DNA from: Nannocystis bainbridge | GTDB taxonomy: Bacteria > Myxococcota_A > Polyangia > Nannocystales > Nannocystaceae | DNA length: 64,000 nucleotides | Assembly: GCF_028368995.1 (NCBI RefSeq) | Contig: NZ_JAQNDL010000001.1 | Location: 768,001-832,000 of the forward strand | Direction: 5' to 3' | Part shown: positions 1 through 63,630 of the stretch, piece by piece | Position numbering within the stretch: the stretch's first letter is position 1 | Layout: every line of letters starts with the position of its first letter | Translations under genes and position numbers: made by a program | The notes under the pieces: model-generated | Seen by the model: only the letters and a program-made list of their open reading frames with translations | Databases searched by the model: none | What the model was told of the DNA's origin: nothing

Positions 1-1210
1 CGGAGTCGGCCCGCAGCGTCGACGCCACCCCGGCGCCGATCACCGCCAGCGCGAGCATCAGCCACAGGTTCGGGCGCAGGCGCAGCGGCATCGGCCGCTC
101 GGCCCGCGGCGGGAGCAACCTGTCCGGAAGGACAGACAGGATCGCCGGCAGCACCAGCAGCGCCAGCGCCAGCAGCACCAGCACGCCGACGCCCGCGGTC
201 ACGCCGAACCGCTGCATCGGCAGCTGCGGCATCATCGTCAGGGAGAAGAACGACACCGCGGTGGTCAGGCCGCTGAGCAGCACCGGCAGCCACAGCTCGC
301 GCAGGGTCGCGCTGGCGCGCTCGCGGCTGGTGCCGTGCTGACGCTGGTAGCCGGCCAGCATGTGCACGCCGAAGGCGCCGCCGAGCGCGACCATCAGCAC
401 CGGCATCGAGCTGCTGACGATCGTCAGCGCCTCGCCGAGCACCCCGTGAGCGCCGAGCACCAGGCCGACGCCCAGGCCGGTGAGGATCAGGTTGATGCCT
501 GCCGCGACCACGCTGCCGAGCAGCACCGCCGAGACCAGCACGAGCACGCCGATCACGATCGGCGACAGCTTGTCGAGGTCGGCCCGGCTGGCGGTGGCCG
601 CCACGTCCTCGATGAAGGGCGCGCCGCCGAGGTGGGTCTCGCCCTGCCAGCCGGTCGCTAGCGCGCCGCGGATCTCCCGGATCGTCGCCGAACGGGCGTC
701 GGCGGCCGCGGCCCGGTCGTCGTGGTGCATCAGGAACACCATCAACGCCGCGGCCCGACCGTCGCGCGAGATCATGCTGCCGACGGCGTCGGTCGAGCCG
801 AGCACCTTCTCGCGGATGAGCGCCGGGTCGCGCAGCGCCTCGGGCACCAGCTCCGCGATCTCGAGCCCGTCGTCGGTGACGCGCGGGTCGGGCAGATCGG
901 CGAACGACAGCACCATGCGCACGCCGTCCTTGCGCTCGATCTCGCGGCCGAGCTCGCGGACCTCGTCGACGCGCTCGGGGGACAGCAGGTCGCCGTCGGG
1001 CTTCGTCAGGCCGACGAGGCCGACCTCGAGCACGCCGAAGCGCTTGGCGACCTCGCGGAACACGACCACGTCGGGGTGGTCGGGCGGCAGGAACGCGAGC
1101 ACGTCGTTGTCCTCGCGGATGGCCGCGAGGCCCGGCAGGATGATCGCCGCCACGGCGACGGCGAGCGCGAGGATGGCCCAGCGGGCGCGGACGAACGGGT
1201 GGTCGCGCAT
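1..1210 (-). CDS. MMPL/RND superfamily transporter (N-terminal part, runs off the window start)
   Basis: Not in the ORF track because it is truncated. Manual translation from ATG at 1210 gives MRDHPFVRARWAILALAVAVAAIILPGLAAIREDNDVLAFLPPDHPDVVVFREVAKRFG, followed by TM segments and the RND/MMPL-type motif SGLTTAVSFFSL. Confidence 0.85.
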   Translation of the reverse strand, partial: MRDHPFVRARWAILALAVAVAAIILPGLAAIREDNDVLAFLPPDHPDVVVFREVAKRFGVLEVGLVGLTKPDGDLLSPERVDEVRELGREIERKDGVRMVLSFADLPDPRVTDDGLEIAELVPEALRDPALIREKVLGSTDAVGSMISRDGRAAALMVFLMHHDDRAAAADARSATIREIRGALATGWQGETHLGGAPFIEDVAATASRADLDKLSPIVIGVLVLVSAVLLGSVVAAGINLILTGLGVGLVLGAHGVLGEALTIVSSSMPVLMVALGGAFGVHMLAGYQRQHGTSRERASATLRELWLPVLLSGLTTAVSFFSLTMMPQLPMQRFGVTAGVGVLVLLALALLVLPAILSVLPDRLLPPRAERPMPLRLRPNLWLMLALAVIGAGVASTLRADS

Positions 1211-1217
1211 CGTCGGC

Positions 1218-3525: not shown

Positions 3526-3602
3526 TCGCATGTCCCGAAGGCCATGCCCTAAGAGACATGCCCGTTAGAACATGCCCTCTTGAACATGCCCCGATGGCCA
3601 GC
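3526..3602. repeat. 14-bp-period TGTCC-N4-GGACA array
   Basis: CATG cores at 3529, 3543, 3557, 3571, 3585 and a degenerate core at 3599; immediately downstream of the TolC stop codon. Confidence 0.9.
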
Positions 3603-9112: not shown

Positions 9113-10165
9113 ATGCCCGTCCGCCGCGTCCGCACGCCGCTGCTCGCCCGCCTGCGCTTCCTGGCGTACGCCCTGCGCCTGCTGGCGCCGCGCCTGGCGA
9201 TCCTGGCCGGGCTGACGATCGCCGGCGGCCTGACCCTGCTGGCGCGCGGGAGCGCGCAGGAGGTCGGGGGCCTCGATTTCGTCGCCGCCTGCTACCAGGT
9301 CTACACCCAGCTGTTCTTCGAGCACGTCAGCGCCCTGCCCGAGGACTGGGCCCTGCGCCTGATGTACTTCACGGTCCCGATCGCCGGCGCCTTCATCGTC
9401 GCCGAGGGCCTGCTCAAGGTCGGCCTGTCGCTGTTCGACTTCAACAACCACCAGACCGCGTGGATCCGCATCATGGCCCAGACCTACCGCGATCACATCA
9501 TCCTGATCGGCCTCGGCCACGTCGGCTACCGCGTGCTCGAGGAGCTGCTGGCCCGCGGGCGCGAGGTCATCGTCGTCGAGGCGCGCGCCGAGGGCCACTT
9601 CGTCGAGGAGGCGCGGGCCCGCAACGTGCCGCTGGTGATCGGCGACGCCCGCCGCGAGAGCCTGCTGCGCGAGCTCGGCCTCGACCACGCGGCCTGCCTG
9701 GTCGCCTGCACCAACGACGACCTCGTCAACCTCGAGGTCGGCCTCGACGCCCGCCAGATCAACCCGAACATCCGCCTGGTGATGCGCTTCTTCGACCAGA
9801 ACATGGCGCGCAAGCTCGGCAAGGCGTTCTCGGTCGACTCGATCTTCTCGACCTCGGCCCTCTCGGCCCCGCTGTTCGCCGCCGCCGCCCTCGACGAGAA
9901 GATCCACGGCGCCTACCGCCTCGGCGACACGCTGATGGCGACGCTCGAGATCGAGGTCCTCGCCGGCGGCCCGCTCGCCGGCAAGAACGCGACCGAGATC
10001 CGCAGCCTGCTCGACGCGCCGGTGGTCGGCCTGCGCCGCGGCAAGGACGCGCCGACCCACCGCTTCGACCGCACCGAGCCGCGCCGCCCGGGCGAGAGCG
10101 TGATCCTCCACGTGGCGGTCGACGAGATCGCCGGCGTCAAGCAGCGCGCGCGCGCCGGCGCCTGA
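9113..10165 (+). CDS. TrkA-N/RCK domain potassium channel-related protein
   Basis: N-terminal TM helices, Rossmann motif HIILIGLGHVG, GDAR, TNDDLVNL, C-terminal RCK-C-like region. Confidence 0.85.
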   Translation: MPVRRVRTPLLARLRFLAYALRLLAPRLAILAGLTIAGGLTLLARGSAQEVGGLDFVAACYQVYTQLFFEHVSALPEDWALRLMYFTVPIAGAFIVAEGLLKVGLSLFDFNNHQTAWIRIMAQTYRDHIILIGLGHVGYRVLEELLARGREVIVVEARAEGHFVEEARARNVPLVIGDARRESLLRELGLDHAACLVACTNDDLVNLEVGLDARQINPNIRLVMRFFDQNMARKLGKAFSVDSIFSTSALSAPLFAAAALDEKIHGAYRLGDTLMATLEIEVLAGGPLAGKNATEIRSLLDAPVVGLRRGKDAPTHRFDRTEPRRPGESVILHVAVDEIAGVKQRARAGA

Positions 10166-10174
10166 GCCGCCCCG

Positions 10175-13273: not shown

Positions 13274-13283
13274 GATTCGGACC

Positions 13284-13946: not shown

Positions 13947-14080
13947 GCGGCTCCGCGCGCGGACGGCCGCAGGACCCTGTCGGCCGCCCGTCGCTGGCGC
14001 GAGCCTACCCCGCCGCGTCGCGGCCCCGCATCCGCGTTCTCCCCGAGCGCGATCCCGAGAGCGCGCGCTGCTTCGCCCGG

Positions 14081-14547: not shown

Positions 14548-15555
14548 ATGCTCCGCCGCGCCGTCCTCGGCCTCGCCTCGCTGCTCGCCTGCGACTCTGC
14601 CGGCGTCGCCCCTCCGGCCGCCCCGCAGCCGGGCGCCGCCGCGACTGCCCCGAAGGACATGCCGAAACAGCCAGGTCCTCAAGGACATGCTCCCGGGGAC
14701 ATGCCCCCCGAGACAGCCTCACCCGCCGCCGCCGCCGCGCCGGTCCCTCCGCTGCCCCCGCTGGCGCGCTACGACTGGCTGACCGAGGCCGGCGGCGAGC
14801 CGCCCGCGCGCGAGCAGCTGGCCGCCGCGATCGCTCCGCCGGCCGGCGCGCGGCGGGTCGCGCTGGCGGACGGCAGCTTCGGCGCCTGGCTGCGCGGCCT
14901 GCCGCTGCTGCCGCAGGGCGCCCCGGTGCTGCTCTACAGCGGCGCCACCAAGCCCAACCAGGCCGCGCACTTCCGGGTCGTCGACCTCGACGTCGGCGAC
15001 CGCGATCTCCAGCAGTGCGCCGACGCCGTCATGCGCCTGCGCGTCGAGTACCAGTGGGCCGCCGACCAGCGGCGCGCGATCGCCTTCAAGCTGACCGACG
15101 GCACCGCCTGGACCTTCGCCGCCTACCTCGGCGGGACCCGCCTCAAGCTGGTCGGCAAGAAGGCCGAGCTCCAGCCCGGCAGCCCGCGCCCGGCCACCCG
15201 CGAGACCCTGCGCGGCTACCTGCGCACGCTCTTCACCTACGCCGGCACCGCCTCGATCGCCGCCGAGCTGCCGCGCCGCGAGCTCGCCGGGCTCACCGCC
15301 GGCGACGTGCTGGTCCAGGGCGGCTTCCCGGGGCACGCCGTCCTCGTGCTCGACCTCGCCGAGGACGATCAGGGCCGCCGCTACTTCCTGCTCGGCCAGA
15401 GCTACATGCCGGCCCAGCAGTTCCACGTGCTCAACAACCCGAGCGAGCCCGACCTCTCGCCGTGGTACCGCGCCGACGCGCTGACGACCGGCGCGATGAC
15501 CCCCGAGTGGGGCCCGTTCACGGACCGCGACCTGCGCCGCTTCCGCGACGGCTGA
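14548..15555 (+). CDS. DUF4846 family lipoprotein
   Basis: Lipobox LLAC; motifs DLQQCADAVMRLRVEY, YAGTASI, GGFPGHAVLVLD, LLGQSYMPAQQFHVL. Confidence 0.85.
   Translation: MLRRAVLGLASLLACDSAGVAPPAAPQPGAAATAPKDMPKQPGPQGHAPGDMPPETASPAAAAAPVPPLPPLARYDWLTEAGGEPPAREQLAAAIAPPAGARRVALADGSFGAWLRGLPLLPQGAPVLLYSGATKPNQAAHFRVVDLDVGDRDLQQCADAVMRLRVEYQWAADQRRAIAFKLTDGTAWTFAAYLGGTRLKLVGKKAELQPGSPRPATRETLRGYLRTLFTYAGTASIAAELPRRELAGLTAGDVLVQGGFPGHAVLVLDLAEDDQGRRYFLLGQSYMPAQQFHVLNNPSEPDLSPWYRADALTTGAMTPEWGPFTDRDLRRFRDG
14655..14720. repeat. 14-bp-period array inside the DUF4846 CDS linker
   Basis: Cores at 14658, 14672, 14686, 14700, 14714. Confidence 0.85.
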
Positions 15556-15557
15556 GC

Positions 15558-15651
15558 GCGCCTGTCCTCACGGACATGCCGCAACGGACATGCCGCAACG
15601 GACATGCCGTCTGGGACATGCTCTCACGGACATGTCGCAAGCGACATGTCC
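15558..15651. repeat. 14-bp-period TGTCC-N4-GGACA array (7 units)
   Basis: Cores at 15561, 15575, 15589, 15603, 15617, 15631, 15645, between convergent genes. Confidence 0.95.
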
Positions 15652-15666
15652 TGCACCCGTCGCGCC

Positions 15667-18223: not shown

Positions 18224-20080
<1,857 letters not shown>

Positions 20081-20082: not shown

Positions 20083-20176
20083 GCGCCTGGCCTCTGGGAC
20101 ATGTCCAGGAAGGCATGTCCAGAGGGACATGGCGCGACGGACATGCCCAGGACAGCATGTCCCCGAGGACATCCAC
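20083..20176. repeat. 14-bp-period TGTCC-N4-GGACA array (7 units)
   Basis: Cores at 20086, 20100, 20114, 20128, 20142, 20156, 20170, directly after the kinase stop codon. Confidence 0.93.
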
Positions 20177-22222: not shown

Positions 22223-22295
22223 CAGCATGCCTCTCGGGACATGTCCACGAGGCCAGGGCCCTCAGGACATGCCCGCATGGACATGTCCCTTCGGA
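22223..22295. repeat. 14-bp-period TGTCC-N4-GGACA array
   Basis: Cores at 22226, 22240, 22254, 22268, 22282, directly downstream of the gloA stop codon. Confidence 0.9.
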
Positions 22296-22299
22296 CTGC

Positions 22300-23662: not shown

Positions 23663-24343
23663 ATGAAGCGCAGCGAAAAGGCCCTCAAAATTCAGGCCGT
23701 CCTCGACCGCCTCTACCCGCAGCCCGCGGTCCCGCTGCTCCACGGCGATCCGTTCACCTTGCTGGTCGCGGTGTTGTTGTCGGCGCAGACCACCGACGCG
23801 CGGGTCAACCTCGTCACGCCGGCGCTGTTCCAGCGCGCGCCGACGCCCGCGGCGATGGCCGAGCTGTCCGAGGCCGAGATCCTCGGGTTCATCCGCTCTT
23901 GCGGCCTCGCCCCGGCCAAGGCCAAGAACATCCGCCGGCTGTCGCAGCTGCTGCTCGAGCGCCACGGGGGACATGTCCCGAAGGACATGGCCGCGCTCGA
24001 GGACCTGCCCGGCGTCGGCCACAAGACGGCCAGCGTCGTCATGATCCAGGCGTTCGGCGTGCCGGCCTTCCCGGTCGACACCCACATCCACCGGCTGGCC
24101 GCCCGCTGGGGCCTGTCCGACGGCACCACCGTCGAGAAGACCGAGGCCGACCTCAAGGCTCTGTGGCCGCAGGACGCGTGGGCCAAGCTCCACCTGCAGA
24201 TCATCTACTTCGGCCGCGAGCACTGCCCGGCCCGCGGCCACGACCCCGAGGTGTGCCCGATCTGCGCGTGGGCCGGCGTCAAGACCCGCCTCGCCGCCGA
24301 GGCCCGCGCCCGCGCGGCCGCCCGCCTCTCCGCGTCCGGGTGA
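23663..24343 (+). CDS. nth: Endonuclease III
   Basis: LLSAQTTD, HhH motif LPGVGHKTA, VDTHIHR, C-terminal 4Fe-4S-type Cys cluster. Confidence 0.95.
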   Translation: MKRSEKALKIQAVLDRLYPQPAVPLLHGDPFTLLVAVLLSAQTTDARVNLVTPALFQRAPTPAAMAELSEAEILGFIRSCGLAPAKAKNIRRLSQLLLERHGGHVPKDMAALEDLPGVGHKTASVVMIQAFGVPAFPVDTHIHRLAARWGLSDGTTVEKTEADLKALWPQDAWAKLHLQIIYFGREHCPARGHDPEVCPICAWAGVKTRLAAEARARAAARLSASG

Positions 24344-24423: not shown

Positions 24424-24489
24424 GGGCATGTCCTTCGGGGCATGTCCGATGCACCATGCTCCTTCAGACATGCCCTTTCAAGCATGTCC
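24424..24489. repeat. 14-bp-period TGTCC-N4-GGACA array
   Basis: Cores at 24427, 24441, 24455, 24469, 24483, between convergent genes. Confidence 0.9.
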
Positions 24490-24834
24490 TCAAGACCTGT
24501 CGAGGTAGCGGCTGGTCGCCAGCGGTCCGAGCGCGGCCTCGGCCAGCGCGCGGACCGTGCGGCCGATCTCGCGGCGCACCTCGGGCTGGGCGAACATCCC
24601 CGGCGGCAGCAGCGAGGCCACGAATTTGCTGCTGCGGATCCGCAGCGCGTCGGCGCGGGTCAGGCTGCCGTGCGAGGTCGGCTCGACGTCGTGGCTGTCG
24701 GGGTCGTCGATCGCCGCCAGCGACGCCACGAACTCGGCCCGCGCCGACGCGAGGTCCAGGCGCGGGCCGTCGGGATGCAGGCGCCGGATCAGCGCCTCGA
24801 GGCCGTCGCAGAGGTCGTCCACGGCCGGCAGCAT
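24490..24834 (-). CDS. Small hypothetical protein
   Basis: Helical, coding-like ORF starting MLPAVDDLCDGLEALIRRL, directly downstream of the propeller gene. Confidence 0.5.
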   Translation of the reverse strand: MLPAVDDLCDGLEALIRRLHPDGPRLDLASARAEFVASLAAIDDPDSHDVEPTSHGSLTRADALRIRSSKFVASLLPPGMFAQPEVRREIGRTVRALAEAALGPLATSRYLDRS

Positions 24835-26914: not shown

Positions 26915-29900
26915 GTGGTCGACCTCGAGGCGGACAGACTGCGCGCCTTGATGCGCGCCGCGGTGTTCAAGCAGCCGCACCAGCCGGTGCTCCTCGGCAA
27001 CTTCGAGATCATCAAGGTGCTCGGATCGGGCGCGATGGGCATCGTGTATGAGGCCTTCGACCCCCGTCGCGGCGAGAGCGTCGCGCTCAAGACGTTGCGG
27101 GCCCCGAGCGCGCGCGCACTGGCGCTCTTCAAGCGCGAGTTCCGGGCGCTGTCGCGGCTGTCGCACCCGAACCTGGTCGAGCTGCACAAGATGTATCGCG
27201 ACCACGACCAGTACTTCTTCACGATGGAGCTCATCCGCGGCTCGCCGCTGCTGACGTACCTGTGGGGCGTCGAGGCCGCTCCCGACGCGCCGACGGCCAC
27301 TCCCGTCACCGACTTCGCCCGACTGCGCGCGGCCTTCGCCCAGCTCGTCGACGGCGTGTTCGCGCTCCACCAGAGCCACAAGCTGCACCGCGACATCAAG
27401 CCGACCAACGTCATGGTCAGCCCCGAAGGCCGCGTCGTCCTCATGGACTTCGGCTTCGTCGGCGAGGAGTCCGTCGGCACGCTCGAGTCGACGGCCGGCA
27501 GCCTGGTGGTCGGCACGCCGGCGTACATGGCCCCCGAGCAGGCGGTCGGCGGCGCGCGCACGCCCGCGAGCGACTGGTACAGCGTCGGCGCCACCCTCTA
27601 CATGGCCCTCACCGGCCGCGTGCCCTACTCCGGGGAGAACCTGGCGCGCATGATGGAGCGCAAGCAGGCGTCGGCGCCCCCGCCGCCGCGCACGCTCGTG
27701 GCCGGCATCCCCGACGAGCTCGACGTCGTCTGCGTGCGCCTGCTCCAACCTGACCCGAAGGTCAGGCCCGGCGCGTCCGAGCTGATGGCGCTGTTCCACA
27801 GCGACCGCGGCCACCTGCAGCGGGTCCAGGCGGCCGCGTACGTGTCGCCGGCCGCCACCCACGTCGGCGCGCGCAGCTTCGTCGGCCGCACCGCCCAGGT
27901 GCGCGCGATCCGGCTGGCCTTCGACGCCGTCGACCGCGCGGCCGCGCCCGTCCCCCCGCCCGAGGCAGTGCCCGCGGTGGTGCTCGTGCACGGCCGCGCC
28001 GGCCTCGGCAAGAGCGCGCTGATCCGCCACGTCACCGACGGCCTGCGCCAGCGCGCGACCCTGCTGCGCGCCCGCTGTTACGATCGCGACACCGTCCCGT
28101 ACAAGGCGCTCGACAGCCTGGTCGACGCCCTGGCCCGCCAGCTGCGCCAGCGCGACGAGGCCGAGGTCGCTACCGTGCTGCCGCCCGAGATCGACTCGCT
28201 GGTCGCGCTGTTCCCGGTGCTCCACCAGGCCCCGGCCGTGGCCGCCGTCACACCTGTCCCTTCGGCCATGCCCACGCGGCGCGATCTCCGGGCCGCGCTG
28301 CGCCCGGACGCCCCGGCCTTCCGCGCGCTGCGGCGGCTGCTCGTCGGCCTCGGCGGCGGCCGCCCGCTGGTGCTGTGGATCGACGACCTGCAGTGGGGCG
28401 ACGCCGACAGCGTGCGCGTGCTGGCCGAGCTGCTGCGCCCGCCCGGGGCCCCGCGCGGCCTGCTGATCGCCAGCTACCGCAGCGAGGACGGCGACAGCCC
28501 GGCGCTGCGGGCCCTGGATGTCCTGAGGGACATGGTCGAACAGGCAGGTTCTTCGATGCAGGTGCTCGAGGTGCCGCCGCTGTCACCCGACGAGACCGAC
28601 GCGCTGGCCGAGATCCTGCTCGGGCCCGACACCCCGCCGCCGCGGCTGCGCCGGGTCGCCGCCGAGGCCGGGGGCAGCCCGCAGCTGCTTCACGAGCTGG
28701 CGCGCTTCGTCGCCCACGGGGCCGGCAGCGCGCCCGAGGTCACGGTCGACGAGCTGATCGAGATCCGGATCTCGCGCCTGTCCGCGCCGCAGCGGCGCCT
28801 GGTCGAGGTGCTGGCGGTGGCCGGGCGCCCGCTGGCCCAGGCGGTCGCGTTCACGGTCGCCGGGGTCGCCCCCGCGGCCGCCAACGCCGGGCTGGCCGAC
28901 CTCCACCAGCTGCAGGCCGCGGGCCTGGTCCGCAGCTTCACCGCCGCCGGCTCCGACCTGCTCGGCGAGCAGGGCGAGCTCGTGCTCGACGTCCAGCACG
29001 AGCGCACCCGCGACGCGGTGCTGATCCGCCTCGACGGTCCGGCCCTGCGCGAGCTCCACGGCCGCCTCGCCGCCGCGCTCGAGCGCGACCCGCAGACCGA
29101 CCCGTTCGCCCTCATCGAGCACCTGCGCGCCGCCGGCGACACCGCCCGCGCGCTCGCCCTGGCCCGCCGGGCCGCCGGCTTCTACCGCGAGGCCGACGAT
29201 TTCCTGCGCGCGGCCGCCTTCCTCCGGGTCGCCCGCGACCTCGCCCCGCCCGGGGCCGCACCGGCGCTCGCGCGCGAGCTCGGCGATGCGCTCGCGCGCG
29301 CCGGCCACAGCCGCGAGTCCGCCGAGGCCTACCTCTCGGCCCGCAACGGCAGCGACCCGGCGGGCGACCTCACCCTCGTCGGCGCCGCCGCGGCCCAGTT
29401 CATCACCGCCGGCCACCTCACCCGCGGTCAGGAGATCCTGAGCGCCGCCCTCGTCTCGGCCGGGCTGTCCGCCGGCGACGCGTCGGTGCGCGACAAGCTC
29501 GGCGCGCTGTGGCGGCGCGGCCAGAAGATGGTCCGCGGCCTCGACTTCACCGCCCGCGCCGAGGCCGACGTCGACCGCATGGACCTGGCGCGGGTCGACC
29601 TGTGCTTCGCCGCCGCGCTGTCGACCATGGCCGTCGACCCCAGCGCCGCCGCCGACGCCCAGGCGCGCCACCTGCTGCTGGCCCTGCGGGCCGGCGAACC
29701 GCGTCGGGTGGCGCGCGCCTTCGCGCTCGAGGCCTGCCTGCTGGCGCCCGGAGGCGCGCGCGCGCGCGGCCAGCTCGACCCGCTGCTCACCTCCGCGCGC
29801 GCCCTCGCCCGCTCGACCGGCGCCACCGGCATCGCCGACCTGTGCGACCTGGTCGACCTGCTGGCCGAGACCGCCGGCGGCTCGCCCACGCGCGCGCTGG

Positions 29901-33798: not shown

Positions 33799-33912
33799 CC
33801 TGTCCTTCGGGACACACTTGAAAATCAGGCGTCGCGGCGCGAGGGCTGTCCTGCGGGGCAGCCCTTTCCCGTCGCGCAGGCGAGCCGAGCCGCCTGTCCT
33901 TCGGGACACCTC
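33796..33912. repeat. Three single TGTCC-N4-GGACA-type units
   Basis: TGTCCTTCGGGACA at 33801 and 33895; TGTCCTGCGGGGCA at 33847. Confidence 0.8.
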
Positions 33913-33999
33913 GCCCGCCCGCTTGCGCCCCCCGCCGCCATGCGTACGGTTCGATCGGCCCGGCGATGCGCCGGACGAACCCACAGGAGGGGAAGACCC

Positions 34000-34254
34000 A
34001 TGTCGGCCGTGCTCGCCTTCACCGCGCTCCTCGGACTGCTCGCCCCCGAATCGCCGCCGCCCGCCGAGCCCGAGCTGCCGAAGCGCGGCCCGCCGCTCGC
34101 CACCGACTGCGCGACCGACTGCGACGCGCGCTGCACCTGGGACGTCTGCCCGCACCCGCTCGGCTGCTTCGCCGCCCTCGACGAGGCCTGCCACACCGCC
34201 TGCCTGACCGAGAAGAAGGCGCAGTGCCCCAGCGAGCTGACGATCCCGCCGTGA
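34000..34254 (+). CDS. Small secreted Cys-rich protein (8 Cys)
   Basis: AGGAGG RBS before ATG 34000, hydrophobic N-terminus, CxxxCxxxC pattern. Confidence 0.7.
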   Translation: MSAVLAFTALLGLLAPESPPPAEPELPKRGPPLATDCATDCDARCTWDVCPHPLGCFAALDEACHTACLTEKKAQCPSELTIPP

Positions 34255-34256
34255 CC

Positions 34257-34390
34257 AGGCCTGTCCTTTCGGACATATCACAAAAGCGCCGCCCCGAAGG
34301 CCAGGCCCGCCGTGCGCGCGGCGAACATGTCCTTCAGGGCAGCAAATCAAACCGCGCGAATCGACGGACCTGTCCCTTCGAACAGCGACC
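34257..34390. repeat. Three single TGTCC-N4-GGACA-type units
   Basis: Core pairs at 34260/34274, 34326/34340 and 34369/34383. Confidence 0.7.
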
Positions 34391-34487
34391 GACAAAAGAC
34401 CGTCCTGAAGGGTGAGCCCGGCGATGCAGCCCGCTCGCCGGGCCCCCCTTCAGGACGGCTGAGAATCCTCCAGTCCCGCAGGGCAGC

Positions 34488-45271: not shown

Positions 45272-45365
45272 GCACATGGCCCAAGAGGCATGTCTTCTCG
45301 GACATGCCCCTTCGAGCATGCCCGATACGACATGCGCTCCTGAGCATGTCCCAAAGGCCATCCCA
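45272..45365. repeat. 14-bp-period TGTCC-N4-GGACA array (7 units)
   Basis: Cores at 45275, 45289, 45303, 45317, 45331, 45345, 45359. Confidence 0.93.
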
Positions 45366-51457: not shown

Positions 51458-53808
51458 TCGAGGCGCAGCCCCAGCGACGGGAAGATCGGCAGCCCGAAGC
51501 CGCCGACCGTGTCGCGGAAATCATAGCTGTACACGTACATCTCGACGTTCTGATGGTTGTACACGTTGAGGATGTCGAGGTACGCGAGGAAGCTGACCCG
51601 CTTGTAGATCCAGCGCCGGTCGACGCGGATGTCGAGCTGATGGAAGGGCGGGAAGCGGGCCGAGTTCTGCAGCCCGCGGATCGGCAGGAAGCCGCCCTCG
51701 TACTCGAGCGAGCCGACCACTGGCGTGTACGGCTGGCCCGACACCAGACGGAACCGGCCGCCGATCTGCCAGCCGCGCCCCAGCTTGATCGACCCCACGA
51801 TCGTCAGGTTGTGCCGCTGGTCGAAGTCCCCCGGGCGGCGCCCGCCCGGATCGCCGTGCTGCTGCGCGAACAGCAGCTCGCTGTGCATCAGCGTGTACGC
51901 CAGCCAGCCGTACAGCCGGCGCGTCAGCGGCTTGCGCAGCAGCAGCTCGAGCCCGTACGTGCGCCCGTACGAGATCCGCGTGGCGAACCCGCCGAGGCTC
52001 ACCGGCGGCACCGCGTTGTCCTGATCGCGATAAAACCCCGTCGCGTCGATCGTCATGTCGGCCGGCAGGTCGTGCGACGCCCCTGCCGACAATTGCAGCG
52101 CCCGGATCACCCGCAGCGTGTTCTGCCCCGGCAGCACCGCGAACGCCGGCTCGAAGTTGGCGAAGTACGCCGGCAGCACCACCTGATTGGTCCCGATCTG
52201 CCCCGAGCTCGGCACGATGCGAGCGTCGACCCCGAACTCCGACTGCCGCGACTGCGAGTAGATGCCCGCGCCGAAGCGCAGGCGCCAGGCGTCGCTCACC
52301 TCCCACAGCCCGTTGATGCGCGGGTCGAGGGCGAACGCCCGCTCCGACCCGAGCGCGAACCCTGACGCGCGGAAGCCCGGCACCAGCAGCAGCGACCCGA
52401 GGCGCAGTCGCCCCGACGAGTACAGCCCGAGCCACGTCTGCTCGCCGCGCGCCGACTGCTCCGGCGGCGGCCAGCTGACCCCGTCGGGCACCTGGCCGCG
52501 GGCCCGGTAGTGATCGACGATCAGGTCCGCGCCGACGATCAGGTCGAACCGCTTCGACATCGAGCGCTGCAGCTCCGCCCGCAGCGACCCGACGTAGTCG
52601 CGGCGGAACTGCTCGCGCTCCTCGACCGGGATCAGCTGGCGGCCGACATCGAAGCGCAGCGCCGGCGACACCATCGTCGACCACGCCCCCATCTTCTTGC
52701 GATACGTGAAGTCGACGCGATGGAAGCTCGAGCGGTAGTCGACCGCGTCCTCGTAGCCGCCCTCCTTCTCGTAGTCGCGGAAGCGGAACCGGATGCGGTC
52801 GCCGGCCCCGAGCACGCGGGCCGAGATCGACGCCCCCTGCTTCAGCGGGAAGTCGACCATCGCCTGGTAATCGTAATAGGTCGGCAGCACCGTCCCGTTC
52901 GAGTCGGTGATCGACATGAACGCGCGCAGGCCCGCGTCCAGGTAGCCGCGCTGGGCCCCGACGATGAACGACCCGCGCTTCCCCAGCGGCCCCTCGACCA
53001 GCGCGCTCGCGGCTCGCAGGTCGACCCCGAGGTGCCCGTGGACCCCGTCGCGTCGCCCGCGGCGCGGCTCGATCACCACCATCCCGCCCGACGCGTTGCC
53101 GTAGCGGCTGTCGAAGTTGCCCGGCACGAAATCGAGGCGCTCGATCACATCACCCGGCACCACGCTCGCCAGCGCCAGCGCGTGGAACGCCCGCGGCACC
53201 GGGTGCTCGCCGACGAACACCCCCGACTGCAGCGGGCTCGCCCCGCGCAGCACCAGCAGCCCCAGCCCGCCCGGCGTGCGCGCCACCCCGGGCAGGTTCT
53301 GCAGCGCCCGCAGCGGATCGCCCTGGCTGCCGGGCATCGTCGCGATCTCCTCGCGCGACAGCGACCGCGCCCCCGCCTCGGGCCGCTTCTCCGTGGCGTC
53401 GCGGACCACCGTGCGATACGGGTTCCACTCGGTCGGCCGCGGGAACAGCTGCCGCTCCGTCGTCGCCCGCGCGAGGATCTCGAGCGTCTGCTCGAGCCGC
53501 TCGAACCCCGGCGTAGCGATCACCAGCCGCAGCTTCCCTGGCGGCAGGTCGACCGCGATCCGCCCCGCCGCGTCGGTCTCGACGATCGTCGTCTCGCCGC
53601 CGGCGCTCACCAGCACCACCCGCGCCTCGGCCAGCGCCGTGCGCAGCCCGGCCGCCCGCACCCGCGCCCGCAGCGTGCCGCAGTCGTCGCGCCCGGCGCA
53701 CGGCTCGCTGACCTGCGGCGGCGGCCGCGGCGGTGGGGCGGCATGCGCCTTCAGACATGCTCCAAAGTACATGACCAGAGCGACATGTCCCTGGCGCCAG
53801 CCGCTCAT
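51451..53808 (-). CDS. TonB-dependent receptor
   Basis: CarboxypepD_reg-like N-domain, plug DPLRALQNLPGV...YGNASGG, beta-barrel with YLDILNVYN, C-terminal LGLRLDY. Confidence 0.9.
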   Translation of the reverse strand: MSGWRQGHVALVMYFGACLKAHAAPPPRPPPQVSEPCAGRDDCGTLRARVRAAGLRTALAEARVVLVSAGGETTIVETDAAGRIAVDLPPGKLRLVIATPGFERLEQTLEILARATTERQLFPRPTEWNPYRTVVRDATEKRPEAGARSLSREEIATMPGSQGDPLRALQNLPGVARTPGGLGLLVLRGASPLQSGVFVGEHPVPRAFHALALASVVPGDVIERLDFVPGNFDSRYGNASGGMVVIEPRRGRRDGVHGHLGVDLRAASALVEGPLGKRGSFIVGAQRGYLDAGLRAFMSITDSNGTVLPTYYDYQAMVDFPLKQGASISARVLGAGDRIRFRFRDYEKEGGYEDAVDYRSSFHRVDFTYRKKMGAWSTMVSPALRFDVGRQLIPVEEREQFRRDYVGSLRAELQRSMSKRFDLIVGADLIVDHYRARGQVPDGVSWPPPEQSARGEQTWLGLYSSGRLRLGSLLLVPGFRASGFALGSERAFALDPRINGLWEVSDAWRLRFGAGIYSQSRQSEFGVDARIVPSSGQIGTNQVVLPAYFANFEPAFAVLPGQNTLRVIRALQLSAGASHDLPADMTIDATGFYRDQDNAVPPVSLGGFATRISYGRTYGLELLLRKPLTRRLYGWLAYTLMHSELLFAQQHGDPGGRRPGDFDQRHNLTIVGSIKLGRGWQIGGRFRLVSGQPYTPVVGSLEYEGGFLPIRGLQNSARFPPFHQLDIRVDRRWIYKRVSFLAYLDILNVYNHQNVEMYVYSYDFRDTVGGFGLPIFPSLGLRLDY
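53739..53790. repeat. 14-bp-period array within the signal peptide coding region of the TonB receptor
   Basis: CATG cores at 53742, 53756, 53770, 53784. Confidence 0.85.
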
Positions 53809-54917
53809 CGCCCCGCGACCTCGACCCGCAGCCACGCCGTCGTGGCGCTGCGGCCGTCGGCGAGGATGACGTACAGGTGGTGCGTGCCCGGCTGCTCGGG
53901 CGCGCGCCACTCGACCTCGAAGCCCGGCCCGGCGGTCGCCTCGAACGGCGCCGGCACCGTCGCAAACCACGCCGCCCCGCGGATCTCGACGATCGGCGAC
54001 ACCGAGACCGCCAGCGTCGACTGGTCGACCGACACCGAGTAGTACGTCTGCGGCGGCGCCGCCTCGACCAGCGACAGCGTCAGCTCGTCACCTGTCCCAA
54101 CGGACAGGGTCGCCCCCGACTGCGCCTCGAGGAAGTACTCGCCGCCGCCCGGCGCCGGCACCCACGCCGCGAAGTGGGCGATCGCCGGCGCCACGTCCGG
54201 CTCGACCTGGCTGATCTGCCACGGCAGGTCCGACGGCCCCACCGGCGAGGTCGCCCCCATCGCCGCCCCCGCCACCACCGTGCGCCAAGTCGGCCCGATC
54301 CGCAGCGTGCGGACGAAGAACAGGCAGTCGCGCAGCGACGACGACGCGGTCGCCAGCGCGTCGGCGCGGCGCAGGCACTCCTGCGTGCTCGGCCCCTCGG
54401 GCGTGCCCGCCACCATCATCACGATCACGCCGATGCTGGCCGCGTCGACCACGTCGCGCAGCGGCCCGAGCTCGAACGTCGCCGCCGGCCCCGGATCCAG
54501 CGCGCAGGTGTCGAGGTTCGGCAGCGCGACCGGGCCGCACGGCAGCGCCTCCGTAAGGTCGACCACCTGGCCGCCGGTGCAGCCGATCCCGCCGCACACG
54601 AACCATCGCGGCTGCAGCGCCGCGACATCGACCGGCCCCTCGGGCCCGGCCACGAACGCGGTGGCCCGCACGCGGTCGCCGGGCATCGCCTCGACCACGG
54701 GGCCGCCGCCGGGCGGCGGGTCCGCGCCCCACGGCCCCGGCTCGATCACCTCGAAGCGCATCGCCAGCGCGTCGGTGTGATCGATCACCCAATACGGGCG
54801 CTCCTCGGGCAAGCAGCTCGCGCCCGCCAGCGCCGCCGCGACCATCACCAGGCTCGCGCCGATCGGCGCCGCGGCGCCCTCGCGGGCCCGGGAGCGCAGC
54901 CATGCGCGGAGCGGCAC
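53805..54917 (-). CDS. Lipoprotein co-transcribed with the TonB-dependent receptor
   Basis: Lipobox GASC; 4-bp overlap with the receptor start. Start may be 54845. Confidence 0.75.
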   Translation of the reverse strand: MPLRAWLRSRAREGAAAPIGASLVMVAAALAGASCLPEERPYWVIDHTDALAMRFEVIEPGPWGADPPPGGGPVVEAMPGDRVRATAFVAGPEGPVDVAALQPRWFVCGGIGCTGGQVVDLTEALPCGPVALPNLDTCALDPGPAATFELGPLRDVVDAASIGVIVMMVAGTPEGPSTQECLRRADALATASSSLRDCLFFVRTLRIGPTWRTVVAGAAMGATSPVGPSDLPWQISQVEPDVAPAIAHFAAWVPAPGGGEYFLEAQSGATLSVGTGDELTLSLVEAAPPQTYYSVSVDQSTLAVSVSPIVEIRGAAWFATVPAPFEATAGPGFEVEWRAPEQPGTHHLYVILADGRSATTAWLRVEVAGR

Positions 54918-56055: not shown

Positions 56056-56121
56056 GGACATGTCCTCTCGACCATGCCCTGAAGGGCATGTCCCATCGAG
56101 CATATCCCAAAGCCCATGTCG
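56056..56121. repeat. 14-bp-period TGTCC-N4-GGACA array
   Basis: Cores at 56059, 56073, 56087, 56101, 56115. Confidence 0.9.
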
Positions 56122-60735: not shown

Positions 60736-60801
60736 GGACATGCTCCGAGGGACATGTTCGATGGGACCTATCCTTACGAACATTCCCCGAGGGACATGTC
60801 C
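60736..60801. repeat. 14-bp-period TGTCC-N4-GGACA array
   Basis: Cores at 60739, 60753, 60767, 60781, 60795. Confidence 0.9.
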
Positions 60802-61359: not shown

Positions 61360-61399
61360 TTCCCGCCCCGCCCACGAGCTCCTCGCGCCCGGCTCGGCT

Positions 61400-62548
61400 T
61401 CAGAACCGCAGCGCCCCGCCCACGAACTCCCACGCCGTCCGCCGCCCGCGACGGTGCTGCAGCGCGTCGACCACCAGCCCGCCCGCGGCCGTCGCCGCCA
61501 GGCCGAGGCCTGCGCCGATCAGGCCGAAGCCGGTCATGTAAAGCACCTCGCCGCGCTCGACCGCCTCGCCGACCCACGCCTCGGCCGCGTTGGCAGTGAC
61601 GAAGAAGGTCGTCCCGTAGGCCAGCGTCGCCACCCCCGCCCCGGCCACCGCGCCGCCGGCGATCGCCTCGGCCGTCCACAGCCGGCGCCGCACCCCCTCG
61701 TCGCGCGCCAGCCCCGTCAATCCTGCCACCAACACCCCCGCGCCGAGCCCCAGCGCCACCGCCCCACCGCCGCCCCGCTCGGTCCAGATCGCCAGCGGAC
61801 GCCGGCAGCCGGCCGCGCTCGCGCCTGTCCCGCAGGACATGTCCTGCAGGACATTGTCGGCACCGCGCAGGCTGATCGCCGTGACCGCCGCCCCGCTGAC
61901 GATCCCCGCCCCGCCGATCAGCGGCGTGGCGATCGCCCACGAGCGCCGGCGCCGACGCTCGTCCGGCGCGCCCTCGGTCGCCCGCGGCAGCCGCGTCATG
62001 TCGGCCGCCAGCGTCGTCGCCTGGCCCTTCGCGCTGGTCACCTCGAGCCGCGCCTCCGCGAAGCCCGGGCGGGCGATCGTCACCACCCAGCGGCCCGGAT
62101 CGAGCACCAGGGTCGCCGCGCCGCCCTCGAGCAATTCGTCCCAGCGCGCCCGCAGCGTCAGCGCCTCGCCGTCGCCGTCGCGACGGGCCGTCAGCGTCAG
62201 CGCCTCGTCGGGGGCCACCGTCGGGTCGACCGCAAGATGCAGCGTGCCCGACTCGCGGACCGCCGACGCCGCCACCAGCTCGGCCACGTTGCGCGCGGTC
62301 CGATCTCGAGCTGCCCGCAAGGCCAGGTAACGCCGCGCCGCCAGCCGCGCGTGCGCCATGCGCCCCGCCTGCAACCACGCCTGGCTCGCCAGCAGCAGCC
62401 CCTGCGGGTGCCCCCCCGCGCGGAAGCAGGCCTCGCCGCGCCGCGCCGCGCCCTCGACCTGCCCGCGCCCCAGCGCCTCGCCGGCCGCGCGCACGCAGTC
62501 GGGCGCCGGCACCAGGACCATCCACAACGACAGCCCGAGCGCGCTCAC
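61400..62548 (-). CDS. Hypothetical TPR/PEGA-like membrane protein
   Basis: GTGA overlap with the upstream gene; helical N-terminus, LDPGRWVVTIARPGF, C-terminal TM helices, ends GGALRF. Confidence 0.65.
   Translation of the reverse strand: MSALGLSLWMVLVPAPDCVRAAGEALGRGQVEGAARRGEACFRAGGHPQGLLLASQAWLQAGRMAHARLAARRYLALRAARDRTARNVAELVAASAVRESGTLHLAVDPTVAPDEALTLTARRDGDGEALTLRARWDELLEGGAATLVLDPGRWVVTIARPGFAEARLEVTSAKGQATTLAADMTRLPRATEGAPDERRRRRSWAIATPLIGGAGIVSGAAVTAISLRGADNVLQDMSCGTGASAAGCRRPLAIWTERGGGGAVALGLGAGVLVAGLTGLARDEGVRRRLWTAEAIAGGAVAGAGVATLAYGTTFFVTANAAEAWVGEAVERGEVLYMTGFGLIGAGLGLAATAAGGLVVDALQHRRGRRTAWEFVGGALRF
61821..61858. repeat. 14-bp-period array inside CDS
   Basis: TGTCCCGCAGGACA TGTCCTGCAGGACA; cores at 61824, 61838, 61852. 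Confidence 0.85.
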
Positions 62549-63630
62549 TGGATCTCCAGCCGCAACGGCACCACCAGCTGCGCCTGCGGCCCCGGCAAGA
62601 ACCGCGACTTCCCCAGCTCGTCCGCCACGCAGGCCCGCGCCGCCGCCGGCACCGCCCCATCGCCCGCCCGCACGCTCGCCCGCACGACCTCGCCCCCGCT
62701 CGCCACCACCAGGCTGCCGGTCAGCGCGGTGCGCCGACCGACGCCGATCGTGACATGCCCCAAGAGACAGGCCAATATTCGCGGCTCGGCCATCAGCGCC
62801 CGCGCCTGCCCGGCGATCTTGCGCCGCCGCTCGGCCGCCTCGCCATCGGCCTGCGCCACCGGCACCCACAACGACCCCGCGCCGCTCGCGTCACCGGCCG
62901 CCGCTTGCGAGTCCGCCGGAGCATCCGCCGGACCCGCTTCTGCCGCACGCCACCCGCCGTCACCCGCCGCGGAAACGTCACCAGCCCCCGGAGCTCCGCC
63001 CTCGACGGCACTCGCAGCCTCACCCTCGACAGCTTCAGCGCCGGGCCCCGCAGCCCCCCGCGCCTCGACACCGACCGCCCCCGCAGCGCCGCGCTCCTCG
63101 CCACCGACCGCTCCGCGGCCCTCCGCATCGGGCCCCCGCTCCTCGCCGTCCCGCGGGCCCGCCTCCGCACCTGGCGTTTCGGACATGCGCGAAACGACAT
63201 AAACCATCGCACATGTCCCGACGACCATGGCCCCGAGGACAGCCATTCGAAGGCCCGGGGCGAACGATCGCCGCGCCTGCGAGCCGGCGCGCGCCACCGC
63301 GGCCGAGAACCCTGGCGTTCGGCCCTGCGTCGTCGACCCCGTCGTCCGTGGCGCCTCGCGGATCGTCGACATCCCCGCGTCGCTGTCGCCCGCCGCCGGC
63401 TCGCGCGGAGCTAGATCTCGCGGGGCCCGGAGCATCGCCGCCGCGACCGCCCCTGCATCCGCCTCGCCGTCGCCCGCGCCGACCCCACGCCTCGCCGGAG
63501 CTCTCGCACGCGCGCCCGCCTCGCCCGCCTCATGCGCCGCCGCGCCGTCGTCTTCGTCGGCGCCCGCAACGGGTCCGCGCGTCGTCTCACCGGTCGTCGC
63601 GCTGCTCGTGCTGTCTCGCCACTCGGGCAT
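62545..63630 (-). CDS. Single-pass membrane protein with TonB-C/AgmX-like C-terminal domain
   Basis: Low-complexity N-terminus, one TM helix, C-terminal ACL...SGGEVVRASV...ACVADEL...VVPLRL. Confidence 0.6.
   Translation of the reverse strand: MPEWRDSTSSATTGETTRGPVAGADEDDGAAAHEAGEAGARARAPARRGVGAGDGEADAGAVAAAMLRAPRDLAPREPAAGDSDAGMSTIREAPRTTGSTTQGRTPGFSAAVARAGSQARRSFAPGLRMAVLGAMVVGTCAMVYVVSRMSETPGAEAGPRDGEERGPDAEGRGAVGGEERGAAGAVGVEARGAAGPGAEAVEGEAASAVEGGAPGAGDVSAAGDGGWRAAEAGPADAPADSQAAAGDASGAGSLWVPVAQADGEAAERRRKIAGQARALMAEPRILACLLGHVTIGVGRRTALTGSLVVASGGEVVRASVRAGDGAVPAAARACVADELGKSRFLPGPQAQLVVPLRLEIQ
63181..63246. repeat. 14-bp-period array overlapping the TM helix coding region
   Basis: Cores at 63184, 63198, 63212, 63226, 63240. 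Confidence 0.8.

Follow-up and report, generated by a model that had tools for sequence, protein, structure and literature searches.

How should a 14-bp inverted repeat that is tiled head to tail along a bacterial chromosome be explained: as a chance pattern, a mobile repeat, an RNA structure, or a word read on the DNA itself? An earlier note described arrays of TGTCC-N4-GGACA in a 64,000-nucleotide stretch of Nannocystis bainbridge DNA (the window). Here we quantify these arrays, place them relative to genes and related genomes, and weigh the explanations that have been or could be offered.

Excess over chance and structure of the repeating unit

The phased palindromes are real and lie far above chance. 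CATG occurs 236 times in the window, and pairs of it are spaced 14, 28, 42 and 56 bp apart in 38, 27, 23 and 10 cases, compared with 0–6 at any other distance up to 89 bp; the peaks that the earlier note predicted at 14, 28 and 42 bp are therefore present. Dinucleotide shuffles, used as the null model for window counts and spacing, gave 0.55 ± 0.74 copies of CATG-N10-CATG, and none of 100 shuffles reached the observed 38. Likewise, TGYCC-N4-GGRCA at up to one mismatch was found 68 times, against 10.0 ± 3.3 in shuffled sequence (largest count, 21). The excess extends across the 11-Mb genome, which holds 3736 CATG pairs at 14 bp versus 72 at 13 bp and 262 at 15 bp, and 954 arrays with at least three phased cores. 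All nine multi-unit arrays named in the earlier note are present (Table 1). Its 13 one- or two-unit copies are each recognisable as TGYCC-N4-GGRCA with 0–2 mismatches, the one at 16295 being the weakest, and its estimate of about 40 loci was of the right order, given 16 CATG chains plus single units.

The repeating unit is TGYCC-N4-GGRCA, an interrupted 5-4-5 palindrome of 14 bp, which bears out the definition given earlier. Inspection of 1908 array ends placed the unit boundary at TG...CA, with the terminal half-site retained and the outer CA at background. The spacer is strict: the genome contains 1987 exact units, compared with 16 carrying N3 and 5 carrying N5, and control words with swapped or reversed arms occur 13 and 3 times, respectively. 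Preferred flanks extend the word to ~20 bp (RCM-TGTCC-N4-GGACA-KGY). When oriented by the transcribed strand, 1286 units proved symmetric, their arms differing only at position 3/12, and the enriched spacer pair TTCG/CGAA was not skewed towards the sense strand, with counts of 29 vs 33 in 3' contexts and 32 vs 47 within genes. Units diverge while the phase stays constant, as had been noticed by eye: the unselected middle core was CATG in 1670 of 2073 triples with CATG at both outer cores, and per-base retention in these triples was 92–94% in the core and ~70% in GGR/YCC, with the spacer near random. Judged by CATG spacing, insertions at unit junctions are absent from the genome. No terminal repeats or target duplications were found beside the arrays, where composition is at background just past the last half-site. 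The abutting repeated units at a fixed phase are a feature shared with cooperative tandem operator arrays.

Table 1 Arrays and units in the window. CATG cores are given for the multi-unit arrays named in the earlier note.
Position	Units	CATG cores	Context	Relatives
121..134	single exact unit		in MMPL-family gene	
3531..3600	5 abutting units	3529-3585	3' of minus-strand gene	4-5 cores at same place
14646..14715	5 unit positions, one degenerate			array also in one relative (L006)
15563..15660	6 CATG cores + terminal half-sites; two adjacent units identical (local duplication)	15561-15645	fills 111-bp convergent intergenic region; starts 7 nt past TGA at 15553-15555	2-5 cores
20088..20171	6 units	20086-20170	convergent intergenic region; 7 nt past TAG ending 20080	2-5 cores
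22228..22297	5 unit positions, one degenerate	22226-22282	beside minus-strand gene stop	2-5 cores
23974..23987	single exact unit		in HhH-GPD domain of base-excision repair gene 23528-24343 (+)	exact in 3 of 4
24429..24498	5 CATG cores	24427-24483	convergent intergenic region	4-5 cores
28519..28532	single exact unit		in 1269-aa Ser/Thr kinase / AAA_16 gene	arms retained; spacers TGAG, TGAA, TCAA, TCAA, TTCA
33801..34485	seven single units, out of 14-bp phase		one long intergenic stretch; units at 33801 and 34262 lie 2 and 9 nt past stop codons	
39823..39878	4 units, 0 mismatches to TGYCC-N4-GGRCA	39821-39877	starts 3 nt past TAG ending 39819	
45277..45360	6 units	45275-45359	follows TGA at ~45261-45263	
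53744..53799	array of 4 CATG cores			
54093..54106	single exact unit		called divergent intergenic region	arms and flanks conserved, spacer alone variable (3 relatives)
56061..56116	4 units, one core CATA	56059-56115		2-4 cores
60741..60796	degenerate array, 2 exact CATG cores + 2 decayed units	60739-60795		3-5 cores
61826..61853	two abutting exact units		within called minus-strand ORF 61400-62869 without Pfam match	
63186..63241	array of 4 unit positions, one core CATA			

Position relative to genes and conservation among relatives

Arrays immediately follow stop codons, and most lie between convergent genes, a position that the earlier reader had missed. They begin within a few bases of the stop, and in 42% of 1158 cases the distance from stop to array does not exceed 10 nt, a figure that is approximate because the gene calls are crude (GC3-based, covering 75–77% of the genome, with starts placed too far upstream). 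The 953 arrays that could be classified include 421 in convergent and 41 in divergent positions; arrays occupy 56–68% of convergent intergenic regions and 4–25% of divergent ones. This placement suggests a role at transcription-unit ends. The 3'-end bias could also stem from tolerance, not function.

Units are not confined to gene ends, which the earlier reader likewise did not note. With the same caveat as to gene calls, 829 of the 1987 exact units (~40%) lie inside called genes, as single copies. Coding interiors hold 658 units, compared with 17–31 in five synonymous-codon shuffles, the null model for the motif count in coding sequence (~29-fold, ~23 expected). For three window units, a Pfam domain of a real gene contains or adjoins the site. 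The word is scarce in low-GC, atypical 100-kb bins of the genome.

Comparison with orthologous sequence separated the arms of the unit from its spacer. For in-gene units, identity to orthologs was 0.884 in the arms, 0.690 in the spacers and 0.843 in the flanks; for alignable intergenic units the values were 0.840, 0.616 and 0.790. The arms are conserved 2.4–2.7 times better than the spacers, and four relatives retain them at the same positions while the spacers change. Judged from these alignments, the arms are under purifying selection and the word is maintained by selection. The arrays themselves are also conserved. All seven array-bearing intergenic regions compared from the window bear arrays in relatives (2–6 cores), eight regions without a phased core in G000 have 0–1 cores there, and arrays occupy the same places in five species with gene identities of 85–90%.

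The word is present across the genus, and the records with the double unit are titled Nannocystis and, by their titles, include cultured type strains. Two sister genera have lower word counts of 87 and 161, versus 10 and 1 for controls. In the sampled sister genus (G013; few loci, 13 sites) the units are single and mostly inside ORFs, so the gene-end role may be secondary. The window had no Rfam match at gathering thresholds, and we found no similar description in the literature, just as the earlier reader knew of no described element with this structure. A GTDB-wide scan did return a 44-bp perfect palindrome repeat of Mesorhizobium that contains exact TGTCC-N4-GGACATGTCC-N4-GGACA. Unlike the Nannocystis arrays, it folds into a single long perfect hairpin whose outer arms are GC-rich (…CCCCCTC/GAGGGGG…) and whose spacers are fixed; we regard it as a different repeat family, and the common core looks coincidental.

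RNA folding and competing explanations

RNA copies of the arrays fold strongly, at a mean of −33.7 kcal/mol per 76 nt, with no significant difference between sense and antisense (−33.7 vs −31.9, p = 0.08). Convergent regions with units have a fold z-score of −4.7, with z below −2 in 87%. Convergent regions without units are also somewhat structured (z −1.3 vs −0.5 in divergent regions, p = 0.002), and hairpins therefore appear to matter at 3' ends in this genome. Canonical hairpin-plus-T terminators occur at chance level (2 sites in 12 kb of the window, where 2.1 are expected), and no T tract follows the arrays, T making up 15% of the next 20 nt behind 197 oriented arrays. Like intrinsic terminators, the arrays lie just behind stops and yield stable RNA folds on either strand, but they differ in their shared sequence, strict 4-nt spacer and in-gene copies, and lack the T/U tract that follows the GC-rich hairpin of such terminators. 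An isolated unit has a stem of only 5 bp, and no complementarity covariation was detected in its flanks (z 0.9, −6.0 and −1.9). Within units, complementarity is weakly positive (z 3.0, 4.0, −0.4, 4.4 and 1.6); the spacer pair 6-9 covaries, where pairing would leave a 2-nt loop, and inner stem positions are Watson–Crick in only 41–58%. On the sense strand, pair 3-12 is U.G in 234 cases and C.A in 151 (p = 3e-5), an excess to which a transcription-linked C-to-T bias could have given rise.

These data bear directly on the view that the arrays act as RNA, forming stacks or foldbacks of UGYCC-N4-GGRCA hairpins in 3' UTRs that would serve as bidirectional terminators or 3' exonuclease blocks, like E. 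coli REP, and sharing sequence through common descent or an RNA-binding protein. The starts at or just past stop codons, the abundance in convergent and scarcity in divergent regions, the very stable folds, the structure of unit-free convergent regions, the lack of canonical terminators, the sense-strand U.G excess and the weakly positive covariation all agree with it. However, the units in coding interiors cannot be terminators, a lone unit offers a short stem with unpaired flanks, and the spacer is strictly 4, although hairpin loops usually tolerate 3–6. Moreover, UUCG has no sense-strand preference, the two strands fold alike, inner stem positions are often not Watson–Crick pairs, the covarying spacer pair would leave a 2-nt loop, and no T tract lies downstream. 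On balance we judge an RNA-level function unlikely. REP/BIME elements of enterobacteria and pseudomonads, the model for such a function, comprise hundreds to thousands of imperfect palindromes that are clustered past stops, often between convergent genes, and have proposed actions at two levels: stabilisation of RNA 3' ends, and binding of gyrase and IHF to the DNA. The Nannocystis arrays resemble them in copy number, clustering and position, but their unit is 14 bp rather than ~35 bp, abuts its neighbours in strict phase without alternating orientation or linker motifs, and is not strictly extragenic; no RAYT gene was found either. This result also counts against a selfish, REP- or MITE-like repeat that is of no use to the host, is copied by a transposase or recombination, and survives only where harmless. 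Such a repeat would account for the large number of copies, the palindromic form of the units, their mainly extragenic placement on the 3' side and the local duplications. Yet a search for the REP-associated tyrosine transposase (Y1_Tnp, PF01797) found no match in the 11-Mb, 90.5% complete genome and was positive in 6 of 14 control genomes; arrays stay in the same places in five species with their arms preferentially conserved; the domains around in-gene units are intact, although a 14-bp insertion would shift the reading frame; and the terminal inverted repeats, target-site duplications and presence/absence differences of MITEs or transposon ends were not seen. We therefore consider a selfish origin very improbable.

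A different proposal is a self-tag resembling an uptake signal, in which a DNA receptor or a repair/recombination factor prefers the word, which then spreads through genes and spacers by molecular drive, that is, through biased uptake or conversion; arrays would accumulate at gene ends through tolerance and may also terminate transcription, like paired DUS. The USS of Pasteurellaceae and DUS of Neisseriaceae are asymmetric 9-12-mers present at about one copy per few kb, with genus or family 'dialects'; they are scarce in foreign islands and frequent in terminators, which are formed from inverted pairs. The Nannocystis word shares with them its thousands of copies in genes and spacers, its lineage specificity with lower counts in the sister genera, its scarcity in atypical DNA and its enrichment behind genes, and the genome encodes ComEC and DprA homologues. 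These two proteins are common in bacteria, however (10 of 14 and 11 of 14 control genomes), Nannocystis is not known to be competent, and drive leaves the absence of insertions at unit junctions unexplained. In addition, each Nannocystis unit is itself palindromic and units are tiled in phase, whereas no uptake signal is known to have either property. A self-tag is accordingly a decidedly unlikely account of the word. Plain slippage microsatellites, or a chance pattern, can be set aside as virtually untenable: some adjacent units are identical, but the shuffles never reached the observed counts, neighbouring units carry different spacers in 95% of pairs but retain their cores, and arrays are conserved at orthologous places. 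The earlier remark that the arrays do not look like slippage products stands in that slippage is a minority process; it missed that local unit duplication is real, identical spacers occurring in 4.5% of neighbouring pairs versus 1.1% of pairs between arrays.

Putative recognition by a symmetric dimer and its meaning

The explanation that we favour, with slightly less than even confidence, is that the word is lineage-specific, selected and read on double-stranded DNA by a putative symmetric dimeric protein, and that arrays of it grow, phase-locked, behind stop codons. Recognition of double-stranded DNA by a dimer is favoured because of the symmetry, strict spacer and in-gene copies. The earlier proposal of dimeric-protein sites is strengthened at this level by the strict N4, the symmetry under transcriptional orientation and the lack of TTCG/CGAA strand bias; the chromosome-organising or nucleoid role attached to it is a guess. 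In tiling geometry, the closest match is to arrays of MetJ met-boxes, in which an 8-bp palindrome is tiled 2-5 times, and of omega-repressor heptads; rows of dimers cooperate on both. Those systems control initiation at a handful of promoters, whereas Nannocystis has ~1000 gene-end arrays that are depleted in promoter regions.

Single sites are scattered over the whole chromosome, genes included, and units tile without gaps behind stop codons, mainly between convergent genes. Under the dimer model, where two units abut, the CA that closes the first and the TG that opens the second would serve as each other's preferred flanks, and this mutual supply would fix the 14-bp phase. Arrays would grow by local unit duplication, followed by drift of the spacers while the arms are held. 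By B-DNA arithmetic, an array may hold a cooperative row of putative dimers, each rotated by ~120 degrees, with three units (42 bp) spanning four helical turns. Such a row would serve as a two-way marker where a transcription unit ends. It may be a roadblock or insulator that prevents read-through and collision between convergent genes, or may handle the positive supercoils that accumulate at gene ends, as proposed for gyrase at E. coli BIMEs. The stable fold of the array's RNA copy may contribute to termination. A more specific version, possible but doubtful, is that an abundant putative dimeric protein of an undescribed kind polymerises on the arrays as a three-start helical filament, providing ~1000 gene-end marks (terminators, insulators or supercoil handlers), and that the in-gene sites serve chromosome organisation.

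The nearest analogue as a genomic word is HIP1 (GCGATCGC) of cyanobacteria. In the part of the HIP1 study on which we draw, it is a lineage-specific palindrome, over-represented many-fold in and between genes and conserved in a manner that points to selection, with its function unsolved and a nucleoid role proposed (PMC5861425). The Nannocystis word is likewise a lineage-specific palindrome; it exceeds expectation many-fold both inside and outside ORFs and is kept in related genomes. It is interrupted and operator-like, whereas HIP1 is an 8-mer with no interruption, and that part of the study reports neither tiled arrays nor gene-end concentration for HIP1 (PMC5861425). As a different word in a different phylum, the Nannocystis repeat is an analogue of HIP1, not a member.

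The termination and insulation of transcription units in GC-rich bacteria without hairpin-plus-U terminators are poorly understood, and in Nannocystis most convergent gene ends in a genome of 11-13 Mb carry one and the same short word, which is under measurable selection. It provides a second, independent case of the 'highly iterated palindrome' problem, with a clear positional signal that HIP1 lacks, and can mark foreign islands as well as serve as a sharp genomic signature of Nannocystis. The operator-like shape should ease isolation of the word's putative reader, and since cultured type strains are among the carriers, pull-down, ChIP/DAP-seq and 3'-end mapping are feasible. Myxobacterial engineering could also draw on the arrays as candidate compact two-way insulators. 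A filament-forming gene-end protein, if true, would amount to a sequence-coded marking of gene ends with no known bacterial counterpart.

The phased unit and its distribution

The phased word is a real, strongly non-random, selected feature that is restricted to one genus and its near relatives. Arrays are present where the earlier note had placed them, and each of seven one- or two-unit copies that it had reported (4910, 16295, 28253, 32641, 48408, 57920 and 62754) contains a unit with one or two mismatches. Its 14-bp spacing also exceeds the shuffled control, with CATG-N10-CATG occurring 38 times in the window versus 0.55 ± 0.74 in 100 dinucleotide shuffles, none of which reached 38. The 236 CATG of the window form 38, 27, 23 and 10 pairs at 14, 28, 42 and 56 bp, respectively, and 0–6 at all other distances up to 89 bp. 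Moreover, TGYCC-N4-GGRCA with at most one mismatch was found 68 times in the window, compared with 10.0 ± 3.3 after shuffling (largest, 21). Across the genome (11.05 Mb, 71.5% GC, five contigs), 3736 CATG pairs lie at 14 bp versus 72 at 13 bp and 262 at 15 bp, with further peaks at 28 (2073), 42 (1586), 56 (751) and 70 bp (383). Chains with steps of 14 or 28 bp number 2074 with at least two cores, 954 with at least three and 607 with at least four; the longest has 16.

The repeating unit was identified from 1908 array ends: the terminal half-site TGnCC is retained (T 0.49, G 0.69, C 0.56, C 0.57), while the CA needed for one more CATG, and all bases beyond, are at background level. This supports the 14-bp inverted repeat TGTCC-N4-GGACA proposed earlier, in the form TGYCC-N4-GGRCA, and rules out the decamer GGACATGTCC, a string whose published matches, among those listed, are mainly p53 papers. 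Conservation within the unit was measured in 2073 triples with CATG at both outer cores, so that the middle unit was unselected. The middle core was CATG in 1670 of these; each core base was kept in 92–94%, the R/Y beside the core in 85–90% and GG/CC in ~70%, and the four spacer bases were near random and richer in A+T. Exact TGTCC-N4-GGACA occurs 1987 times genome-wide, versus 16 times with N3, 5 with N5, 13 with the arms swapped and 3 reversed. The preferred flanks of an isolated unit are RCM (left) and KGY (right), and a neighbor in an array provides exactly these flanking bases (RCA-TGY), which accounts for the CATG junction and the intolerance of junction insertions.

Within the junction, the two bases flanking CATG avoid complementarity (z = −9.3, genome-wide). 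ACATGC and GCATGT together are ~1.5–1.7 times as common as ACATGT and GCATGC combined in arrays of at least five cores, and half of the two-core chains are ACATGT.

Four CATG in 14-bp phase were found in 10 of 10 same-genus genomes, and the single exact unit is spread far more widely than such arrays (see table). The word seems to predate its tiling, and long arrays seem typical of the large-genome species. Sites in the sister genus G013 are single and, in a small sample of 13 distinct sites, mostly lie in ORFs. A GTDB-wide scan with one genome per species for two abutting exact units yielded 49 stretches: 32 in Nannocystis-titled records (punicea, pusilla, exedens, radixulma and unnamed species), 14 in Mesorhizobium and 3 singletons. 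The Mesorhizobium match is the center of a 44-bp perfect palindrome repeat (…CCCCCTC TGTCCTGCCGGACATGTCCGGCAGGACA GAGGGGG…) kept across 14 records (L045–L091); judged by its sequence, this is an unrelated REP-like element with a core in common by coincidence.

Window features, ortholog identities and genome counts (coordinates are window positions unless a contig is named)
Feature	Location or set	Observation	Control
Four phased CATG	window's own genome	869	0 (reversed)
Four phased CATG	five genomes of 12–13 Mb	409–527	0 (reversed)
Four phased CATG	five genomes of 4.5–9.1 Mb, less complete	1–13	0 (reversed)
Four phased CATG	14 other genera of the family	0	0 (reversed)
Four phased CATG	16 genomes, other families of the class	0	0 (reversed)
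Single exact unit	all 10 genomes of the genus	114–2090	1–6
Single exact unit	sister genus G011	87	10
Single exact unit	sister genus G013	161	1
Single exact unit	12 other genera of the family and 16 genomes of the class	0–8 (background)	
In-gene units	17 of 17 alignable	identity to orthologs: arms 0.884, N4 spacers 0.690, flanks 0.843	
Intergenic units	21 of 46 alignable	identity to orthologs: arms 0.840, N4 spacers 0.616, flanks 0.790 (biased toward conserved sites, the 25 non-aligning units being uncounted)	
Longest array	G000:C3:1237904-1238197	16 cores over 294 bp; unusually AT-rich, degenerate, between co-directional genes	
Long intergenic region	33799–34487	seven single units, out of 14-bp phase	
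Small ORF in that region, by eye	ATG 34000 to TGA 34252–34254	84 codons, Cys-rich	
Multi-locus match	20343–20715	several other places in each relative, 82–85% identity; looks like a multi-copy gene family or repeat	
Multi-locus match	18379–19229	many places in relatives at ~70%; looks like a multi-copy gene family or repeat	
Tandem repeat	14189–14405	78-bp unit, 2 copies	
76-bp piece beside the 78-bp repeat	14330–14405	other loci in relatives, 91–95%	
Tandem repeat	42257–42356	15-bp unit CGGCGCGTCGGCCTT, about 6 copies; unrelated to the palindrome arrays	

Gene ends, coding copies and conservation

Array positions were classified with a crude GC3-based gene caller that covers 75–77% of the genome, with exact stops and starts set too far upstream. 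Among 953 classified arrays of at least three cores, 421 are convergent, 158 + 158 co-directional and 41 divergent, and 175 were called 'inside'; genome-wide, the four intergenic classes have roughly equal frequencies. Co-directional intergenic arrays adjoin the stop of the upstream gene (median 23–25 bp, versus 225–280 bp to the next start). Measured from stop codon to first unit (1158 distances), the unit overlaps the stop in 19% of cases and begins 0–10 nt after it in 23%, with peaks at −3 (TGA itself supplying the first TG), +2 and +3. At least one unit matching 9 of 10 specified bases is present in 56–68% of convergent, 16–43% of co-directional and 4–25% of divergent intergenic regions. 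Promoter-region arrays gave no lead to a binder: most of the 41 'divergent' arrays are artefactual, arising where small genes were missed or a false start was called at an array ATG. Around the 12 longest arrays, the neighboring genes revealed nothing beyond the usual convergent setting.

A T tract was looked for after the arrays and not found, and hairpin-plus-T terminators in 12 kb of the window were at chance level (2 versus 2.1 expected). At 33847 the unit forms part of a larger hairpin, GGGCTGTCC-TGCG-GGGCAGCCC, with TTT behind it; no other terminator-like context was seen. ARAGORN detected no tRNA in the window.

The word is also abundant within genes. The 1987 exact units include 1176 that are strictly isolated and 829 within called genes, the latter distributed over the reading frames as 439/290/100, the favored frames being those that fit GC-rich codon usage. 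These in-gene units share no common peptide and are scattered along genes. In coding interiors (6299 genes, 7.2 Mb, with the first 150 and last 30 nt cut off), 658 exact units were counted versus 17–31 in five within-gene synonymous-codon shuffles and 7 for the swapped-arm control. Window genes with internal units include a repair glycosylase (unit in the HhH-GPD domain), a gene with an MMPL domain (unit within that domain) and a large kinase, in which the unit closely follows the AAA_16 domain.

Synteny with most of the window was found in four same-genus relatives (G003, G005, G007 and G010), whose genes are 83–93% identical. In all seven comparable array-bearing intergenic regions the relatives carry arrays at the same place, with 2–6 cores, different N4 spacers and occasional local expansions; in eight intergenic regions lacking a phased core in the window's genome, the longest chain in relatives is 0–1. 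Ortholog alignment covered 63 window units matching at least 9 of 10 bases, namely the 68 less five that fell within a called gene's first 150 nt. From the arm and spacer identities in genes and intergenic regions, the arms diverge 2.4–2.7 times more slowly than the spacer, as is visible base by base at 28519, 54093 and 33801. Even within genes, the spacer is conserved less than the flanks (0.69 versus 0.84 identity): either the encoded protein accepts substitutions where units lie, or the spacer is a local mutation hotspot. Window segments 10155–14530 and 39885–43510, which have few units, are probably strain-specific insertions, since no syntenic counterpart of either was found in the four relatives.

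Recognition as DNA or RNA

On balance, these sequence patterns favor recognition of the word by a protein on duplex DNA. Its 5-4-5 layout matches helix-turn-helix dimer operators, such as the FNR-type site. That the arrays act instead as stacks of RNA hairpins is unlikely, although they sit behind stop codons, their predicted folds are very stable (mean −33.7 kcal/mol for 76 nt), and convergent intergenic regions with units fold at z = −4.7 versus shuffles. Even convergent regions that lack units show more structure than divergent ones (z −1.3 versus −0.5, p = 0.002), and hairpins therefore seem to play a part at gene ends in this genome. Units show weakly positive internal complementarity (z 3.0, 4.0, −0.4, 4.4 and 1.6), and on the sense strand U.G exceeds C.A at pair 3-12 (178 versus 99; in another count 234 versus 151, p = 3e-5). 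Position 3/12 is the sole asymmetry of units oriented by transcription, which could alternatively reflect a C-to-T bias on the non-template strand; the otherwise perfect symmetry argues against RNA, as do the in-gene copies and the strictly 4-base spacer. Further against RNA, sense and antisense fold energies do not differ significantly (p = 0.08), inner stem positions are Watson–Crick in only 41–58%, covariation extends to spacer pair 6-9, implying an impossible 2-nt loop, and isolated units would be a bare 5-bp stem with unpaired flanks. TTCG/CGAA spacers are ~6-fold enriched over the product of positional base frequencies, but this tetraloop was dropped as RNA evidence because it has no sense-strand preference (29 versus 33; 32 versus 47). 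Mirrored spacers are rarely complementary (perfectly so in 1.1–3.5% of pairs versus 1.0% in the control), and whole-array foldback was rejected as a general feature. Rfam gave no match in the window, and a sequencing-run search returned metagenome runs only, with 6–11% of the words. RNA folding of arrays may be an added effect.

Spread by drive, as for DNA uptake signals, is quite improbable: the word resembles them in copy number, lineage specificity and liking for terminators, but uptake signals are asymmetric. ComEC and DprA homologues are present in the genome and neither support nor exclude uptake, because both are nearly universal. A selfish repeat is very improbable. REP/BIME elements have the place and clustering of the arrays in common and differ on two tested features, as no RAYT (REP-associated tyrosine transposase) gene was found and the word is not strictly extragenic; a RAYT-driven REP model was rejected because the genome has no PF01797 match. 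Slippage can hardly be the source. The earlier note had regarded the divergent units as unlike slippage products, which holds for the 95% of neighboring spacers that differ but not entirely: neighboring spacers are identical in 4.5% of pairs versus 1.1% between arrays, indicating local unit duplication, and some arrays have super-periods of 28 or 42 bp. A restriction target is disfavored because the word is over-represented.

Known systems and proposed role

The element has features of both highly iterated palindromes and REP-like gene-end repeats, and we did not find its tiled form described; no published account of a similar Nannocystis or myxobacterial element was found in the open-access literature searched. 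Its tiling geometry resembles that of MetJ and omega operator arrays, which, however, occur at few promoters. Like HIP1, which its abstract describes as over-represented within and between genes and conserved by selection, the word is enriched in both settings and conserved by selection; HIP1 is an uninterrupted, different word, and the abstract reports no arrays (PMC5861425).

We propose that each duplex-DNA unit is bound by one dimer. At 10.5 bp per turn, 14-bp steps would place successive dimers ~120 degrees around the helix, with three units making four turns. Cooperative binding would give arrays a high occupancy and mark transcription-unit ends in both directions; an array may serve as an insulator or roadblock, or may be where the positive supercoils arising between convergent genes are handled. 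Sites occurring singly in genes would be weak and tolerated.

Loose units are roughly evenly spread, at 22–32 per 100 kb on each of the five (unordered) contigs. Unit-poor 100-kb bins (2–4 units) on contig C1 at 0.5–0.6, 1.1–1.3 and 1.8–1.9 Mb are probably acquired or foreign islands, because they combine lower GC (0.686–0.711) with atypical coding statistics, namely a poor GC3 gene-model fit. The 0.4–0.5 Mb bin of contig C5 holds 3 units. The word could act as an island detector.
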